Below are positions 11,057-63,848 of a stretch of DNA of 64,000 nucleotides, piece after piece. Within the stretch, counting starts at the first letter, position 1. Each line of letters begins with the position of its first letter. Source of the DNA: an archaeon (lineage in GTDB: Archaea > Nanobdellota > Nanobdellia > Woesearchaeales > GW2011-AR9). The stretch lies in NCBI GenBank assembly GCA_002688265.1, contig NZCK01000024.1, positions 8,731 to 72,730 on the forward strand. Direction: 5' to 3'. The notes under the pieces were generated by a model. It was not told the origin of the DNA. It saw only the letters and a list, made by a program, of their open reading frames with translations, and made no database searches. The translations under genes and the position numbers were made by a program.

Positions 11057-11428
11057 TTATCTTTTTTGTAAAAGTCTTCTAAATGCACCTGTTTCTATTT
11101 TTGCACTAATTTTTGTTTGAACATGATACTTTTGACATAATTGCATATTCTGCTGCATCCTAGCTAATAGTTTAGCCTGATTGATTGCACCTTTAGTGTT
11201 CCGTAAATTTTCAAAAGAAAATCCAATGGTTTTTTTCTTTTTCTTTGCGATTTTTAAAGTAATTTGATCAAGGCCCGCTCTGAGGTAATGAAAAGAATCT
11301 TTGATGTGAATTTTTTCTGCTCCAAGAATAGATTTATCTTTTCTTCCCTCAATTTCTTGACGAAGTTTCTTCTCGTTGGAAGATGACATTCTTCTAATAT
11401 TATTGTATTTGTTTGCTTTGGAATTCAC
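11057..11428 (-). CDS. hypothetical basic protein
   Basis: 123-aa Lys/Arg-rich ORF. No motif recognised. Confidence 0.35.
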   Translation of the reverse strand: MNSKANKYNNIRRMSSSNEKKLRQEIEGRKDKSILGAEKIHIKDSFHYLRAGLDQITLKIAKKKKKTIGFSFENLRNTKGAINQAKLLARMQQNMQLCQKYHVQTKISAKIETGAFRRLLQKR

Positions 11429-11514
11429 AATAAACCAAGAATAACCTGTGATTGTTCTTAATATTTACTAAAATATAGCACTGTCCAAAAAATACCTAAA
11501 ATATACAACGTCAC

Positions 11515-12672
11515 TTATTTTATTGCTTGCAAAAGTCTCATTTCTGTTCTATACACCTCCTCAGATATTGCTTTTTGAGTTTTTAGGCCAATAAGGGCTT
11601 TATCAAAAGGAAGCCCACTCCCCCCTAGCATTGAATTATATAACTGACCAAAATTCCCTTTTTGAATTTGGTTCCTTGATCCATGAGAAGAAAATAAATA
11701 TTCCATAGCTAAAGCGACCCCATTACTCCCCTCTCTTGGAAGAATTTTTTGATAAGAGATGAACCGTAAGTAAGTTGCTAAATCATGTCTCACTGCCAAC
11801 TGTTCTCCTTCGGAAAATCTGGAACAAATTCCTTGCAAAGCATTTGGAACACTCTCACCATGATAAGTGCTTAAAACTAAATGACCTGTGCTGGCTGCAG
11901 TTAACGCCGCCCGAATTGTTTCTTTATCTCTTAACTCCCCAACATAAATAATATCGGGTTTGTCTCGAAGCGAATCCTTCACACCCTGTTCGAAACTAGC
12001 CACATGAAGTCCCACTTGACGCTGCACGACTTGTGTTGAACCATAAGATCTAAACAAGGCCTCAATCGGGTCTTCTAAAGTTATTAATTTTGCAGACCCA
12101 CTTCTCTTTATTGCACGCTCTTTAATAATCCCATCAACAATTGAAGTTAACGTTGTGGATTTACCTGAGCTGGTCGATCCTGTTACCAAAATTAATCCAC
12201 TTGATTCAGTTGCAATTAAACCATACACTGAAGTTGGAAACCCAATGTCACTAATTGACATGATCTTACTAGGCAGCTTACGCATAGTCACCGCAAACCC
12301 CATATAGGCGCTACGAATACTTACTCTAAACCGGCAACCATACAATTCTCTTGCCAAATCTAATCCTTTATTGTTTAATAGAACTTCATATTCTTTATCT
12401 GAACAAATTCCTCTGACAATCTGTTCAACAAACTCTTCTGAAAGAGGATCGACTTTTGTTTGTCTATGAAGAAAAGAGGGGCGATCTCCCGTCGCTGTAC
12501 TTGGGCCTTTAGCTAAACTTTTGGGAAGAGGAACTAATCCTCTCCCTGGATAACTAATACTTGGTGCAGACCCCACAGTGAAATGGAAATCAGAAACTTG
12601 ACCAATGGTTAATAGTTCTTGAAAGGTTAACTTGTTGTCCGGGAAAGCAATTTTGTCCAATTCACAAACCAT
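11515..12672 (-). CDS. pilT: PilT-family type IV pilus (retraction-type) ATPase
   Basis: 385 aa. Collinear with bacterial PilT: SDFHF, RFRVS, MRKLPSKI, Walker A LVTGSTSSGKSTT, ITLEDPIE, IIYVGELRDKETI and TGHLVLSTYHG. Confidence 0.8.
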   Translation of the reverse strand: MVCELDKIAFPDNKLTFQELLTIGQVSDFHFTVGSAPSISYPGRGLVPLPKSLAKGPSTATGDRPSFLHRQTKVDPLSEEFVEQIVRGICSDKEYEVLLNNKGLDLARELYGCRFRVSIRSAYMGFAVTMRKLPSKIMSISDIGFPTSVYGLIATESSGLILVTGSTSSGKSTTLTSIVDGIIKERAIKRSGSAKLITLEDPIEALFRSYGSTQVVQRQVGLHVASFEQGVKDSLRDKPDIIYVGELRDKETIRAALTAASTGHLVLSTYHGESVPNALQGICSRFSEGEQLAVRHDLATYLRFISYQKILPREGSNGVALAMEYLFSSHGSRNQIQKGNFGQLYNSMLGGSGLPFDKALIGLKTQKAISEEVYRTEMRLLQAIK

Positions 12673-12812
12673 TTTTTAAAAAAACTTCATTTTTATTTAA
12701 AAAAATGGCTACGATGGAAGCTATGTTTTAGAGCATAGTTTTTTAAAACAGAAACGTTCTGAAGCCCATAAAGAAACACTTAGCCAATTAGTGGAAGAGT
12801 GGGACCAAAAAA

Positions 12813-13016
12813 ATGAAGATTACTGTAACAAACGAGAAAGAAGCAAGTCGTAGAACCATTGAAACTTATGCTACAACAGTAAAAGATTTGCTACAAGAAT
12901 TAAAAGTTAATTCTGAAACTGTCTTAATTGCAAGAAATTCAGAAATTCTGCTCCCTACTGAAACACTAAAAGATGGCGATGAAATATTGCTGCTAAGTGT
13001 GATTTCAGGAGGCTAA
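12813..13016 (+). CDS. ThiS/MoaD/SAMP-type ubiquitin-like sulfur carrier
   Basis: 67 aa, the size of a beta-grasp domain. It ends ...LLLSVISGG-stop, a C-terminal di-glycine. Confidence 0.75.
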   Translation: MKITVTNEKEASRRTIETYATTVKDLLQELKVNSETVLIARNSEILLPTETLKDGDEILLLSVISGG

Positions 13017-13021
13017 AAATT

Positions 13022-13978
13022 ATGTCAAAATGTGATAAATGTGAACACAAATCAGTAATAATGCTGCAACATGGGCCACTTTGTAGTAAACACTTCGTAA
13101 GTTATTTTGAAAATAAAGTCTTCAAAACTATTCAAAAATTTAAACTAATAAACCGTGATGATATTATTTGTGTTGCAACCTCTGGGGGCAAAGATTCGCT
13201 AACAGTTCTGTATCTAGTAAAACAATATTTAAAACGTCAGGGGATGGACTCAACAACTTTGACTGCTCTTGCAATCAACGAAGGAATCGCAGATTATCGT
13301 GAAAAAACACTTGAAGACTTACGCAAATTTTGTAATGATTATGATGTCGATCTAACTGTAGCGACGTTTGAAGAACACTTAGGGGCAACCCTTGATGAAG
13401 CATACCCTAAAATTAACAAGATTACTGGGAAAAAACCTTGCAATATTTGTGGGGTATGGCGCAGATACTTGTTGAATAAGTACGCCAAAAAATTAGGTGC
13501 TACAAAACTGGTTACAGGCCACAACATGGATGATGAATCACAAGCCATCATGATGAACATGTGTAAAGCAAATACTTCGCTTGCAGCAAAACTTGGGCCA
13601 ATGGGTGGAGTGGCTGCGCATGAAGGTTTTACTCGAAGAATTAAACCATTATATTTGTGTAGCGAAAAAGAAACCCGGCTTTACACTTTCTTAAAACAAT
13701 GGAAAGTAGAATACACTGAATGCCCGAATGTAATTGCAAGTTATCGTGCAGAAATTAGAGATTCTTTGAATCAATTGGAAGAGAAATATCCTGGAACTAA
13801 AAATGGGATTGTTAAATCATTTTTGGATATGTTACCTTTGTTGCAATCACGAGAATTAAACAAAGATTCAAAATATTCTGGGCCGCAAACTTGTGCCCTT
13901 TGCTCTGAACCGTCAAACGCAACCGAATGTAATGCATGCAAACTAAAAACTATTTTGGATGGTGTTAACAATGAGTGA
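13022..13978 (+). CDS. ttuA: TtuA/Ncs6-family tRNA 2-thiolation PP-loop ATPase
   Basis: 318 aa. PP-loop SGGKDS. Zn-ribbon-like CxxC pairs at both ends (CDKC..., CALC...CNAC). CNIC plus a later Cys could be Fe-S ligands. Confidence 0.8.
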   Translation: MSKCDKCEHKSVIMLQHGPLCSKHFVSYFENKVFKTIQKFKLINRDDIICVATSGGKDSLTVLYLVKQYLKRQGMDSTTLTALAINEGIADYREKTLEDLRKFCNDYDVDLTVATFEEHLGATLDEAYPKINKITGKKPCNICGVWRRYLLNKYAKKLGATKLVTGHNMDDESQAIMMNMCKANTSLAAKLGPMGGVAAHEGFTRRIKPLYLCSEKETRLYTFLKQWKVEYTECPNVIASYRAEIRDSLNQLEEKYPGTKNGIVKSFLDMLPLLQSRELNKDSKYSGPQTCALCSEPSNATECNACKLKTILDGVNNE

Positions 13979-14957
13979 TACTGATAGATATATTAGACAA
14001 ACTCCATTGATTGGAGAAGAGGGTCAGATTAAATTGGCTGACTCGCACGTTGTTGTAATAGGGGTTGGTGCACTAGGAACAGTAGCTGCAGAACTGCTTG
14101 TTCGATCTGGTATTAACCACATTACTTTAATTGATAGAGACATTGTAGAAACATCAAATTTACAAAGACAATCACTTTACATTGAAGATGATGTTCTGAC
14201 TAGTAAAGTTTTATGTGCGAAAGAAAAATTATTGGCAATAAATAAAGATGTTAAGATTGAGATCCATGCTGTGAATTTGAGTAAAAGAAATATCTCTGAT
14301 TGTGTTCCAAAAAATGTTGATTTGATTTTAGATTGTTGCGACACTATGTCACTTAGGTGGCTAATAAATGATTACACACGCAAACATAAAATTCCTTGGA
14401 TCTTTGCTTCAGCTGTGGGTTGGCAAGGAATGTTACAACTGATTTTGCCAGATTCTAATTGCTTGGCCTGCAATTTTCCAAAAGAAGCGCAAGGTGAAAC
14501 TTGCGCAGAAGCAGGAGTTATGGCTATGACCTCCCACACTATTGCTAGTCTGCAGAGTAATTTGGCTTTGCGGTTTTTGGTTGGAGAAAAGATAGAAGAA
14601 TTTTGTGGCACTTTGTTCTCTTTGGATTTGCAATCTCTGGATATAAGAAAATTTAAAGTAAAGAAAAAAGAAAATTGTGGGCCTTGTAAAAAAGAGTTTA
14701 TGTTGTTAGAAAATGAAGGGGATCAAGAACAAATTGTGCGCTTTTGCTCGTCTGGACAATTTCAAGTGCATAAAACAAATTCTGTGGATTTGAATAAATT
14801 GTTAATGGTTGTAAAAAAAGAATTCGAATTTGTGCACCTTGATGAAGTTTGTTTAAGGTTTGGACCAGTAACAGTATTTTCTGATGGGAGAGCATTGATC
14901 AAGAGTAATTCTGAAGCAGAAGCAGTTAGTATATACGATAAATATGTTAGGAATTGA
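13959..14957 (+). CDS. E1-like MoeB/ThiF/UbaA adenylyltransferase
   Basis: 332 aa. Rossmann loop VIGVGALGT and two CxxC pairs (CLAC, CGPC). There is a ~90-aa C-terminal extension. ATG at 13971, overlapping the upstream stop, is the likely start. Confidence 0.8.
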   Translation: MVLTMSDTDRYIRQTPLIGEEGQIKLADSHVVVIGVGALGTVAAELLVRSGINHITLIDRDIVETSNLQRQSLYIEDDVLTSKVLCAKEKLLAINKDVKIEIHAVNLSKRNISDCVPKNVDLILDCCDTMSLRWLINDYTRKHKIPWIFASAVGWQGMLQLILPDSNCLACNFPKEAQGETCAEAGVMAMTSHTIASLQSNLALRFLVGEKIEEFCGTLFSLDLQSLDIRKFKVKKKENCGPCKKEFMLLENEGDQEQIVRFCSSGQFQVHKTNSVDLNKLLMVVKKEFEFVHLDEVCLRFGPVTVFSDGRALIKSNSEAEAVSIYDKYVRN

Positions 14958-60111: not shown

Positions 60112-60657
60112 ATGGGAAAGATGACAATTGCAAGAGAAAATATTTTTAGAGACAAAAAGGGACAAGGAATAGGACAAGTTTTTGTGTTTATAGTAGCGGG
60201 TTTAACTTTTGCATTTGTTATGATTTTTGGATACAAAGCTATCGCAGACTTCTTGGAGAAAGGAGAAACAGTTGAGTTCTTACAATTCAAAAATGAAATC
60301 GAATCAGACATAAAACAAATAGCCTCAGAATATGGTGCAGTCAGACAAACAACATTTTATCTTCCTGCGAGATATGAAGAAGTTTGTTTTATAGATTTGG
60401 ATGCAGAGTATGATTCGAGTAGTGAACTTTGTCAAAAAAATATTATTGCGTGTGATGTCTGGGAGACTGCTTTTGAAGAGGGAGGATACACTGCGGCTGA
60501 TGAAAATGTGTTTTTGGAGCCAACAGCACCAGTTTCTATTAAAGTTTATAATATCGAACTAGACGAAGATTATTTTTGTGCAACTGTAAGCGGCGGACAA
60601 TTCACTCTGAGATTGGAAGGATTAGGCTCAAAAACATATCTCTCAGAAGCAAGCTAA
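60112..60657 (+). CDS. class III signal peptide (type IV prepilin-like) protein 1
   Basis: 181 aa. ...FRDKKG|QGIGQVFVFIVAGLTFAFVMIF has a basic leader, G|Q, then a hydrophobic helix. Confidence 0.6.
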   Translation: MGKMTIARENIFRDKKGQGIGQVFVFIVAGLTFAFVMIFGYKAIADFLEKGETVEFLQFKNEIESDIKQIASEYGAVRQTTFYLPARYEEVCFIDLDAEYDSSSELCQKNIIACDVWETAFEEGGYTAADENVFLEPTAPVSIKVYNIELDEDYFCATVSGGQFTLRLEGLGSKTYLSEAS

Positions 60658-60708
60658 ATTGAAGTTACTTGTATTGAATTTTATTTTTTGAGTTAATATA
60701 TTATAAAA

Positions 60709-61860
60709 ATGGTAGTAAGAAGAAGAGTTCGGTCTAAAACAGGGCAAATGACACTCAGTTTTAATTGGATCTTTGTTTTGATAGCTGGAACAATGATTTT
60801 ATTATTTTTTGTAGGAATTATAATTAAACAAAAATCAGTATCTGAACAAAAATTAAATTTTGATATTGTAACAGTTATGGATTCTATTTTAACAGGATCA
60901 ACAGTCTCTGAGAGGACAATTAATTTTGTAGATATAAGTGGACTTGCAGGATTTGAATTATATTTTGATTGCGAACTAGATGACGGAGGTGGTTTTGATG
61001 ACATATTTGCACAGTATGGAATTACAGGAAGTACTGCCAGCAGCGAATTACCAATGCAAGTTTTGTTCGCTCCTAAAACAATGGAAGGAACAGAAATGAT
61101 TACTTGGAGTTTGCCCTATAAAATGCCTTACAAAGTGATGGATTTATTGATGGTCACATCAACTTCAGTTAAATATTACGTTATAGGTGGAGAGAATACA
61201 GCATTTAGAACTGATTTAGAAAATGCAACAGATGGGTTCACAATAGAATTTATTTCTGATGTATCTGAAATTTCTTCACCAGGAGATTTGTACCATGTTC
61301 GAATAATTGACCTTGATGGAAGCACGTTAGTTCATAGTATGGAAATTCCTGACATATTAAAAGATGCAGATACTGGCGTAGTTACAGGAATTTTAATATC
61401 AGACACATTAAGTAGCGTAAATTATTTTGCTAAGAATGGAGATGTTTGGAATAAATTAACTTCAGCAGGATCTGTCCCGATAATTAATACAGGGTACGAA
61501 GAAAAAGATGCAGCATTATATGGTGCCTTGTTTTCATCCGATGATGAGTCATACAAATGTAATATGATGAAAGCGTTTAAACGGTACTATTTAGTGACTC
61601 AGTTGTACCAGGAGAAAGTTGAAGAGATGATCTCTTATTATGAAGAAGGGCCAGAAGAAGCTCAAGCTAATACTGATTGTGGTTTGCATTTAACAGAAGA
61701 CGCATCTAACATGGAAGACGCGCTTAATAATTTGGCAAGCACACTTACAACTTGTATAGAGCAAGGTTATGATTATTGCACAGAACTTTCAGAATATGCC
61801 AGAGAAGTGCACACTTTAAACGAAGCATTAAGTGGAGAAAATTGTGAGACATTATACTGA
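60709..61860 (+). CDS. class III signal peptide (prepilin-like) protein 2
   Basis: 383 aa. MVVRRRVRSKTG|QMTLSFNWIFVLIAGTMILLFFVG. Confidence 0.6.
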   Translation: MVVRRRVRSKTGQMTLSFNWIFVLIAGTMILLFFVGIIIKQKSVSEQKLNFDIVTVMDSILTGSTVSERTINFVDISGLAGFELYFDCELDDGGGFDDIFAQYGITGSTASSELPMQVLFAPKTMEGTEMITWSLPYKMPYKVMDLLMVTSTSVKYYVIGGENTAFRTDLENATDGFTIEFISDVSEISSPGDLYHVRIIDLDGSTLVHSMEIPDILKDADTGVVTGILISDTLSSVNYFAKNGDVWNKLTSAGSVPIINTGYEEKDAALYGALFSSDDESYKCNMMKAFKRYYLVTQLYQEKVEEMISYYEEGPEEAQANTDCGLHLTEDASNMEDALNNLASTLTTCIEQGYDYCTELSEYAREVHTLNEALSGENCETLY

Positions 61861-61889
61861 CACAATTAAAATAGGCTATTTGGGAAAAA

Positions 61890-62504
61890 ATGAAAACAAT
61901 TAATAAAAAACAGCAGCGCAAATGGGGAATTTTTCCTAAAGGCCGAAGAGCCCAAATGCAAATGATGGAAACAATAGGAGTGATCTTCATATTTTTCGTT
62001 TTAGTGCTGTTTGGATCAATATTTTACTTTAAATTCCAAGAAATTAGCTTTCAAAATCAACAAGAAGAATTGTTAGCCCAAAAAGCAATGGATATTACAC
62101 TAGTAACTTTGTTTTTACCAGAAATTCAATGCAGTCAAGGAGATGCAGAATCTGAAGATAATTGTGTTGATATGACAAAGGTGAGGGCCATGAATATGAT
62201 GATGGAAGAAAACCCCAGATATTTGACAGATTATTACTTCAATATTTTTGGTTACGCGAATATAAGTGTAAACATGGTTTACCCCATAAATTATTCTTGG
62301 ACCGTTTACGAATTTGAAAAAACAGGAATTTATGATAATGGGACAGAATACTCTGCTTGGGATCGAAAAGAAGCCACCTATTTTGTGATTACTTTAAGAG
62401 ATGGAATGCAAGGCTATGGATATGACAGTGCAGTAAGTTCATTATTCTTAGGAAATGAAATTATTTACAGTTTTGGTTACTTGAAAATTGAGGTGTTCAG
62501 TTAA
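61890..62504 (+). CDS. class III signal peptide (prepilin-like) protein 3
   Basis: 204 aa. ...FPKGRRA|QMQMMETIGVIFIFFVLVLFG. Confidence 0.55.
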   Translation: MKTINKKQQRKWGIFPKGRRAQMQMMETIGVIFIFFVLVLFGSIFYFKFQEISFQNQQEELLAQKAMDITLVTLFLPEIQCSQGDAESEDNCVDMTKVRAMNMMMEENPRYLTDYYFNIFGYANISVNMVYPINYSWTVYEFEKTGIYDNGTEYSAWDRKEATYFVITLRDGMQGYGYDSAVSSLFLGNEIIYSFGYLKIEVFS

Positions 62505-62505
62505 A

Positions 62506-63045
62506 ATGGCTAATCGCAGAGGACAAACAGAAATGATTGGCCTAGTTGTAATTGTGATAATGCTAACACTTGGAATGTTGTTCTTAGCCAAATTTGCTCT
62601 ACAGGAAGAACCAGCTAAAAAAATATTTACTAGAAAAGGTCTTGCTTATAGCACAATGAGTGCAGTTATGAAAACAGAATTAGAATGTTATGATAGCGCC
62701 ACATCAAATGATCCTGATGAACTAAAAGTTCAAGCGGATTTGCTTGAGGATTGTGCAGATGTTGTTAGATTTAATACCGCAGGAGATATTAGTTGTTATG
62801 GTTACGATAGCAGCTGTGATTTGTTAGAAGAAGAAATTTCTATTTTGTTAAATGCTACACTAGGAGAATGGCATAAAGAATATTTGTTTAGCGCTGAAGT
62901 TTTGGTTGGAACTGAGCCTTTGACAGTATTAGAGATTGATAGTGGTGGATGTGCCACTTCAACTGAGCGAGATAGTTCAGGATTATTTCCGATTTATGTG
63001 ACGAATGTAGGTTTAATTGAAAGTGTTTTGTATATCTGTGAGTAA
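62506..63045 (+). CDS. class III signal peptide (prepilin-like) protein 4
   Basis: MANRRG|QTEMIGLVVIVIMLTLGMLFLA. ATG 62506 is preferred over the track's TTG 62488, which overlaps the previous gene. Confidence 0.6.
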   Translation: MANRRGQTEMIGLVVIVIMLTLGMLFLAKFALQEEPAKKIFTRKGLAYSTMSAVMKTELECYDSATSNDPDELKVQADLLEDCADVVRFNTAGDISCYGYDSSCDLLEEEISILLNATLGEWHKEYLFSAEVLVGTEPLTVLEIDSGGCATSTERDSSGLFPIYVTNVGLIESVLYICE

Positions 63046-63155
63046 AGTTTTTATTAAATTTGAATAGGGATTCCCGTAATGTTTATATACGCTAAGAGAT
63101 TATTTATTAACTAGTATTAATAGTATAAAATTTAATATTTAACGAGGTGGATGGA

Positions 63156-63527
63156 ATGGATTTTCTAAAATCAAAGAAGGGACAAGGATTGTCTTTAACA
63201 GTTATTATTGTAGCAGCACTGGCACTAGTTGTTTTAGTGGTGTTGGTTTTGATTTTTACTGGAAGAATGTCAGTATTTAGTGAAGGTTTAGGTGAAGAAG
63301 GAACAGCAGAATTAACAACATACAAAATAGTTTATGGTGATTGTCATCCAACAAGCAGTCAAGAAAATGCGTTTTTGAATGCAATGAGTCAAGCAGCTAA
63401 TGACAAAGATAACACCCAAGAGCTGGAAACGGAAGCCAAAGATGACTTTGAAGGAGTCATTGATGACTGTCGTGCATCAGGAATTGATGAGAACGCTTGT
63501 GAATCTGATGGATGTAGTTGGAATTAA
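63156..63527 (+). CDS. small prepilin-like protein 5 (major-pilin candidate)
   Basis: MDFLKSKKG|QGLSLTVIIVAALALVVLVVLVLIF, with a Cys-containing C-terminus. ATG 63156 is preferred over GTG 63147. Confidence 0.6.
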   Translation: MDFLKSKKGQGLSLTVIIVAALALVVLVVLVLIFTGRMSVFSEGLGEEGTAELTTYKIVYGDCHPTSSQENAFLNAMSQAANDKDNTQELETEAKDDFEGVIDDCRASGIDENACESDGCSWN

Positions 63528-63530
63528 AAG

Positions 63531-63848
63531 ATGGTAATTAGTAAAAAAGCGCAACAAAACATGTTTTGGATAGTGATTGGTGCAGTAATTGCTTTGGTTG
63601 TAATGATCATACTAATAGTAATGTTTACTGGGAAGACAGGAGCATTAGAAGGGGGCCTTTTGGATTGTCAGAGTAAAGGAGGGGTCTGTGAATATACTAG
63701 TGAAGATTGTAAAAATTCCGACTCTTTTAGTAAAACTGGTGGTTACTCTGGAGAGGACGCAGGAACTGTTGCATCAGCATTTCAATGTTCTGGAGTTAGT
63801 TCAGACATAGTTTGCTGTTTCCCACCAAGCAAAGTTTCCGAAGATTAA
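63531..63848 (+). CDS. small prepilin-like protein 6 (major-pilin candidate)
   Basis: 105 aa. MVISKKA|QQNMFWIVIGAVIALVVMIILIVMF, with 6 Cys in the C-terminal half. Confidence 0.6.
   Translation: MVISKKAQQNMFWIVIGAVIALVVMIILIVMFTGKTGALEGGLLDCQSKGGVCEYTSEDCKNSDSFSKTGGYSGEDAGTVASAFQCSGVSSDIVCCFPPSKVSED

Follow-up and report, generated by a model that had tools for sequence, protein, structure and literature searches.

Can an archaeon carry a PilT motor gene of bacterial lineage, and what could such a motor act on? The question is raised by one gene, hereafter pilT, at positions 11515..12672 (− strand) of a 64,000-nt stretch (the window) of contig NZCK01000024.1, which belongs to the Woesearchaeales genome assembly GCA_002688265.1. 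Reviews and recent primary papers describe archaea as lacking PilT homologs and their pili as retracting with no dedicated motor (PMC6098224, PMC11178785); an earlier note on the window had correctly given the general view that archaeal type IV pilus systems lack a PilT-type retraction motor. Denise et al. assign the duplication that separated PilB and PilT to a clade made up of bacteria alone (PMC6668835). We are highly confident that pilT is a PilT-family gene, that it lies in the archaeal chromosome and that it arrived by horizontal transfer. The fuller reading, a horizontally acquired, lone motor gene of bacterial lineage that also serves pilus retraction in the archaeon, is put forward tentatively, and taken as a whole we lean slightly against it.

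Family identity of the protein

The 385-codon open reading frame (ORF) was uninterrupted, with zero in-frame stops under translation table 11. Its product comprises an N-terminal PAS-like domain and a RecA-type ATPase domain, without an N1 extension. T2SSE was the sole Pfam family detected (6e-34). Among the NCBIfam profiles, the PilT/PilU family TIGR01420 ranked first with 238 bits, followed by DotB (127.5), TraJ (121.9), ComGA (107), GspE (102), PilB (88), FlaI (59) and VirB11 (48). The margin of the best profile thus exceeded 100 bits, and that of PilT over DotB was 110 bits. The DotB and TraJ scores fell far short of their own cut-offs of 463.3 (TIGR02524) and 368.3 bits (TIGR02525), and the FlaI profile NF058587, whose cut-off is 550 bits, gave 58.7. 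A PADLOC search returned merely a 19-bit match to the P-loop. The top sequence matches in the PDB were PilT2 (5fl3, 2.6e-45), PilT4 (6ojx) and the Aquifex and Pseudomonas PilT proteins, then PilU (9n32) and DotB; FlaI reached 3.5e-10 at best.

An AF2 model of the protein had a pLDDT of 90.6 and a pTM of 0.87, with the proviso that its input was an alignment with 49 bacterial PilTs, which may bias the model toward PilT. It displayed the expected two-domain fold (PAS-like N-terminal domain plus RecA-type ATPase, ~350-aa class, no N1). The best Foldseek matches were PilT4, PilT2, PilU and the P. aeruginosa PilT (E 1e-36 to 1e-30, TM 0.75–0.82), with PilT4 aligned over 375 columns (E 1.5e-36, TM 0.8). 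DotB came after the PilT/PilU structures, and then PilF/PilB/GspE. The gene is intact, and its product is predicted to fold as PilT. Profile ranks, PDB sequence matches and predicted fold all bear out the earlier suggestion that the protein is of PilT type rather than FlaI/PilB type.

The same two-domain architecture and length class occur in bacterial PilT (TIGR01420; T. thermophilus PilT2, 5fl3; G. metallireducens PilT4, 6ojx; P. aeruginosa PilT, 3jvu), with which the protein shares the Walker A lysine, Asp box, Walker B glutamate, His box and the SD(L/F)H and RFRV blocks. Unlike that of bacterial PilT, its gene belongs to an archaeon and stands alone, unaccompanied by PilB, PilC, PilM–Q or bacterial pilins, and the identity to any PilT is 31–39%. 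DotB and TraJ, of type IVB secretion and IncI conjugation, have the same PilT-like fold, at ~21% identity in tree columns, but no Dot/Icm or Tra genes lie near pilT. The archaeal FlaI/PilB-type ATPases (S. acidocaldarius FlaI, 4ii7; the genome's own 774-aa ATPase on contig C7) share the PF00437 core at 18% identity; pilT lacks their long N-terminal region and falls in a separate clade in maximum likelihood (ML) trees.

Every PilT block named in the earlier note was present in the translation: SDFHF (residues 27–31), RFRVS (114–118), MRKLPSKI (130–137), GSTSSGKS (165–172), ITLEDPIE (197–204), IIYVGELRDKETI (241–253) and TGHLVLSTYHG (262–272). Its claim of collinearity with PilT over the whole length stood for residues ~20–375, except for an insert of ~25 residues (50–75; 12448..12525, − strand) in the N-terminal domain. 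This insert corresponds to a gap in all 49 PilTs, is lineage-specific, had a pLDDT of 54–58 and is predicted to be disordered. The protein agreed with bacterial PilT at 69 of the 94 columns that are ≥85% conserved in the 49 sequences. The residues known to be essential to PilT activity, namely the Walker A lysine, the Asp box acidic residues, the Walker B glutamate and the His box histidines (PMC5065972), were all retained (K171; E200, D201 and E204; E246; H264 and H271), and they occupy columns invariant in the 49 PilTs. The arginines of RFRV and R131 were retained too. The Walker A motif (GSTSSGKST, residues 165–173; 12154..12180, − strand) is slightly atypical, as had been pointed out. It keeps Lys171, and the glycine at position 168, invariant in the 49 bacterial PilTs, is replaced by serine relative to the canonical GPTGSGKST. 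The C-terminal AIRNLIRE motif, proposed as a check in the same note, is degenerate. In the alignment with PilTs its counterpart is GSRNQIQK (residues 331–338; 11659..11682, − strand), which shares just R, N and I with it; the second arginine, invariant in the 49 PilTs, is replaced by glutamine. AIRNLIRE distinguishes PilT from PilU, which lacks it, and modelling puts the motif at the PilT–PilC interface (10.1101/2025.10.30.685630). The protein ends level with PilT, having no PilU-specific C-terminal extension, and a second PilT-like gene was not found in the genome.

When 1.84 billion cluster representatives were searched exhaustively with phmmer, no relative other than the protein itself exceeded 43% identity. 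The highest nominal scores in this search belonged to tandem two-domain proteins, which were rejected as close relatives. In a word-indexed search the best non-self match was P0002, a 471-aa bacterial PilT (215 bits) in which the stretch TCHIMTIE...LHTLDATE is present twice. This apparent nearest relative was rejected for its internal duplication, which is probably an assembly artefact that inflated the score. The best 80 genome matches were scattered across many bacterial phyla at 31–42% identity, and no donor lineage could be named from them.

Phylogenetic placement

The phylogenetic sample comprised bacterial PilT, pilT-adjacent PilU-like paralogs, bacterial PilB/GspE (including HofB and GspE of E. 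coli K-12), YggR of E. coli K-12, IncI TraJ, an Alteromonas DotB-like protein, archaeal FlaI/PilB-type ATPases of relatives and the bacterial-type ATPases of other Woesearchaeal genomes. Mean identity to the query in the kept columns was 33.6% for PilT, 29.5% for PilU-like proteins, 24% for PilB/GspE, 21.5% for DotB/TraJ and 18% for the FlaI type. Both quick ML trees placed the query inside the PilT/PilU clade (SH-aLRT 97 and 94), outside the clade of pilT-adjacent, PilU-like paralogs. The archaeal FlaI-type clade (support 99–100) and the PilB/GspE clade (99) were clearly apart. In a careful tree the query belonged to a group of five long-branch PilTs (support 96/91), which included a PilT from another archaeal genome (G095); DotB/TraJ nested close to the query at low support. 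The protein is PilT-like on all four counts of profile, fold, architecture and ML position; membership of crown-group PilT is beyond the reach of statistics.

Reality of the gene in the archaeal chromosome

The assembly comprised 1.07 Mb in 32 contigs, with 84.7% completeness and 0.6% contamination, and the homologs of its other genes bear names pointing to Woesearchaeota or, in the Genome Taxonomy Database (GTDB), Nanoarchaeota. The archaeal replication and translation context described for the locus is genuine. The contig with pilT (73 kb) codes for TBP, MCM, Cdc6/Orc1, both PolD subunits (DP1 and DP2), aIF5B, Trm1 and RNase J.

Four public contigs encode exactly the same protein. Two of them, a 72-kb scaffold of Tara Oceans data reported from three samples and a 3.6-kb k127 contig assembled separately from run ERR594345, were each 100% identical to the window over both junctions of pilT. 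The gene order at the matching junctions was NcsA–ThiS, pilT, a small conserved gene (110 aa as called on those contigs; a 123-aa ORF here) and a 329-aa gene. Since both junctions were identical in two other assemblies, a chimeric join is very unlikely. The pilT gene is real and chromosomal in this archaeon.

Insertion site

In a DNA search of four genomes of the same genus, the flanks of pilT were found in conserved order, at just 67–79% DNA identity over the aligned stretches. On one side lies the 123-aa gene (11057..11428, − strand) and on the other an operon of a ThiS-like gene, a PP-loop (NcsA/TtuA-like) gene and a ThiF-E1 gene (12813..14957, + strand); both are conserved and syntenic in the congeners. 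The homolog of the 123-aa gene is ~100 bp from ThiS in G003 and ~160 bp in G002, compared with 1.4 kb here, with pilT in between. A PilT-like gene occurred in none of the four same-genus genomes and in none of 42 genomes of the same family. The gene is a lineage-specific single-gene insertion. Its left edge is the spacer from the pilT stop to the start of the 123-aa gene (11429..11514), the homologous gene in G003, of 124 aa, being ~100 bp from ThiS. The right edge is the spacer from the pilT start to ThiS (12673..12812), of which the 23 nt proximal to ThiS (CACTTAGCCAATTAGTGGAAGAG) are kept in G003. The insertion is flanked by neither a target-site duplication nor inverted repeats nor genes of mobile elements; only short AT-rich chance repeats were found.

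With 39.5% GC, pilT ranks at the 96th percentile among the ORFs of the genome, and its codon-usage score ranks at the 8th. The native PP-loop gene nearby (NcsA/TtuA-like; 13022–13978, + strand) has equally atypical codon usage (7th percentile) and a high GC3. Composition alone therefore proves little for pilT, and compositional outliers of this genome, taken alone, are unreliable markers of horizontal transfer.

Promoter

A TATA box, TTTAAATA (12694..12701, − strand), starts 29 nt upstream of the pilT ATG. Across the whole genome, starts of TTTAWATA peak sharply at −30 from the ATG, with 58 of 772 long ORFs having one in −33..−28 against a background of ~0–1 per position outside the peak, and the pilT box falls inside this peak. 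From the background rate, the chance of its occurring at the peak position is estimated at well under 1%. The sharp peak suggests that mRNAs of this archaeon are mostly leaderless. The position of the box likewise implies a leaderless pilT transcript, supports the start of the 385-aa frame and supports transcription by the archaeal machinery, as judged from sequence. The peak is serviceable for checking start codons throughout the genome.

PilT-type genes in related archaea

Matches to TIGR01420 at E ≤ 1e-30 were found in just three of 401 genomes sampled across the phylum and in 11 of 401 genomes of the order. PilT-type genes in the order were those of the present genome and four others: G095 (380 bits), G508 (361), G498 (316) and, as a partial sequence, G439 (304). 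Those of G095 and G508 are above the curated cut-off of 319.1 bits and the other two slightly below it. PilT homologues are thus far from common in related archaea; their being common and already characterised had been named as one of two outcomes that would undo the claim. Within the order they are rare yet recurrent, and no other is as diverged or as isolated as the pilT described here. The Woesearchaeal PilTs (G095:C7, G508:C3, G498:C26, G439:C186) come from the same order as the query and belong to the same loosely supported long-branch group in ML trees. Unlike the query with its 238 bits, they score 304–380 bits, and they are 29–32% identical to it.

Near-canonical PilT was accompanied by bacterial-type PilB (570–604 aa) and T2SSF genes in G095, G508 (L121/L128/L131) and G498 (L122/L129). 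In G095, the PilT gene (L028, G095:C7:45279-46307) lies on a 110-kb contig that carries archaeal CDC48, and the PilB gene (L029, G095:C3) on a separate contig, adjoining a NOG1-type GTPase gene with an archaeal-type ProRS gene nearby. Both ATPase genes are singletons amid archaeal housekeeping genes. The remaining TIGR01420 matches (G026, G032, G036, G428, G475; secondary ones in G095, G498 and G508) were bacterial-type PilB-like proteins of 530–617 aa. The partial match in G036 was rejected as PilT because it falls in the PilB/GspE clade. A PilT on contig G038:C56 (35% identical to the query; L032/L120) was rejected as an archaeal homolog because of 10–12 in-frame TGA codons on a 7.8-kb contig with 28.6% GC. 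None of the ORFs of this contig match the genome with pilT, and it is most likely a mis-binned contig of a TGA-recoding bacterium (code 4 or 25) in an archaeal MAG (metagenome-assembled genome).

Pilus machinery of the genome

The genome has just two T2SSE-type genes, pilT and the 774-aa archaeal FlaI/PilB-type ATPase gene on C7. Of the machinery that the earlier note had proposed to look for, a prepilin peptidase was found (A24, on contig C30), and neither a bacterial-type PilB nor a Pfam-detectable PilC was present. This differs from the type IVa pilus setting of PilT sensu stricto. There, PilB and the T2SSF platform belong with PilT; here they were not found, and archaeal-type pilins and the A24 peptidase are present instead.

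A cluster of archaeal prepilin-like genes, as proposed before, lies at 60112..63848 (+ strand), ~48 kb from pilT. Its ORFs match no Pfam family. They have N-termini resembling archaeal class-III signal peptides (KKGQ|GIG, RRGQ|TEM, KKGQ|GLS, KKAQ|QNM), and their products are candidate filament subunits, the substrate that a pilus motor in this cell would have. Two genes from the pilus ATPase on C7 is a gene (G000:C7:45143-47383, − strand) whose 746-aa product has some nine hydrophobic helices. This protein is 64–92% identical across Woesearchaeota/Nanoarchaeota, and JGI names it TadB now and then. It matched no Pfam family (E ≤ 1) and no PDB profile (E ≤ 10). Its model was of medium confidence (pLDDT 70), and weak, non-significant Foldseek matches to PilC (3jc8_Ca, probability 0.92) and to the cytoplasmic domain of EpsF (2vmb, probability 0.96, TM 0.6, 121 residues) are suggestive of a very diverged pilus platform candidate.

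Proposed function and alternative explanations

We propose that one marine Woesearchaeota-type (DPANN) lineage gained a PilT-family motor ATPase gene of bacterial lineage horizontally and singly. It would have entered the divergent intergenic region between the 123-aa gene and the ThiS–NcsA–UbaA operon, and would be read from the archaeal TATA box as a leaderless mRNA. The product probably still forms an ATP-hydrolysing hexamer. By analogy with bacterial pili, this hexamer might dock beneath the archaeal type IV filament machine of the cell itself and drive the removal of pilins (retraction or disassembly), a step we regard as doubtful. The putative machine would consist of the 774-aa ATPase on C7, the 746-aa candidate platform protein, the A24 peptidase and the pilins at 60–64 kb. 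In that case, the altered AIRNLIRE region and the insert in the N-terminal domain could represent re-tuning to a non-cognate platform. The most specific version is unlikely to hold in full: a recruited PilT with a re-tuned platform surface that powers an archaeal pilus, an inter-domain hybrid providing motor-driven retraction for host attachment by a DPANN episymbiont.

A number of results weigh against the reading of pilT as a working retraction motor. The TIGR01420 score of 238 bits is below the NCBIfam curated cut-off of 319.1. The query departs from bacterial PilT at 25 of the 94 columns that are ≥85% conserved; residues invariant in the 49 PilTs are replaced (R40S, G168S, N183I, D238K, E261S, L270Y, R281G, R337Q), the conserved GM pair is absent, and AIRNLIRE, the motif modelled at the PilC interface, is degenerate. 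The terminal branch of the query measured 2.0–2.1 substitutions/site against a median of 0.5–0.7, i.e. 3–4 times as long. Approximately unbiased (AU) tests kept a grouping of the query with the FlaI-type clade (delta lnL 10.6, p 0.29) and one with the PilB/GspE clade (delta lnL 13.9, p 0.23). The superfamily tree that had been called for places the query in PilT/PilU by ML, and the AU tests are also compatible with a deep position outside crown-group PilT. As for partners, no bacterial-type PilB was found in this genome (84.7% complete), and no T2SSF platform (PF00482, E ≤ 0.01) in it or in its congener G003. The 746-aa model gave no Foldseek match at E ≤ 0.001 and no significant match to PilC. 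By comparison, all four other PilT-bearing Woesearchaeal genomes have T2SSF and three of the four have bacterial-type PilB. The insertion is missing from every close relative, and all of these run the same archaeal pilus machine without PilT.

Several of these features would also be expected of a neutral or decaying passenger, i.e. a transferred gene without partners that drifts under relaxed selection and whose frame is still open through recency or chance. The long terminal branch is compatible with relaxed constraint as well, and the substitution of invariant residues, the Walker A G168S among them, the lack of pilT in all relatives and the failure to find a cognate PilB or PilC in the genome fit the same picture. 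Drift has more difficulty with a 385-codon frame that is unbroken in a genome of 34% GC, where stops arise easily, and with the retention of every catalytically essential residue. It is also at odds with the confidently predicted fold, the host-type TATA box at precisely the genome-typical distance and the identity of the sequence in contigs from several samples or runs. The congeners are only 67–79% identical in the flanking DNA, which would have given ample time to lose a useless gene from a reduced genome. We consider a passenger unlikely; if it were true, the locus would be a small footnote on horizontal transfer only. Recruitment of pilT to a motor outside pili, such as one for DNA or protein translocation at the symbiont–host contact, as DotB does in type IVB secretion, would account for the altered PilC-interface motif and the new surface insert. 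The ranks of DotB and TraJ as second and third among the families (127 and 122 bits), their weakly supported position near the query in the careful tree and the failure of Pfam to detect a PilC point the same way. Such a neofunctionalised protein is nevertheless a rather improbable explanation, given that the PilT profile lies 110 bits above DotB and that the PADLOC match is weak and confined to the P-loop. Moreover, no type IV secretion system (T4SS) or other partner genes adjoin pilT, whose neighbours are housekeeping genes conserved without it.

A trivial explanation would be an assembly chimera or binning contaminant, with a bacterial gene misjoined to an archaeal contig. The mildly atypical GC and codon usage of pilT would suit such an origin, and a contaminant of this kind does exist in another MAG, namely the PilT of G038:C56 with its 10–12 in-frame TGA codons. 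The pilT frame, however, is free of stops under table 11, the promoter is archaeal and at the host-typical position, and the neighbouring NcsA-like gene is equally atypical in codon usage. With both junctions reproduced at 100% identity in the 72-kb scaffold (three samples) and the single-run k127 contig, and with flanks syntenic with the congeners, this explanation is nearly excluded.

The preferred reading is that of an acquired PilT motor gene. At the level of the gene, the locus is a well-verified counter-example to the absence of PilT from archaea: a member of the PilT family resides in the chromosome of an archaeon, has an archaeal promoter and lies apart from all bacterial partners. It poses the testable question whether a PilT motor is workable on, or adaptable to, the pilus platform of an archaeon. 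The locus further extends the record of bacterial genes entering DPANN genomes, in which host contact is believed to be mediated by surface appendages.

Intergenic element upstream of the sulfur-relay operon

The 23-nt element CACTTAGCCAATTAGTGGAAGAG upstream of the ThiS-like gene (12777–12799; L020 ~1500–1525) is common to the present genome and G003, the remaining intergenic sequence having diverged. It is a possible regulatory or leader sequence for the sulfur-relay operon.

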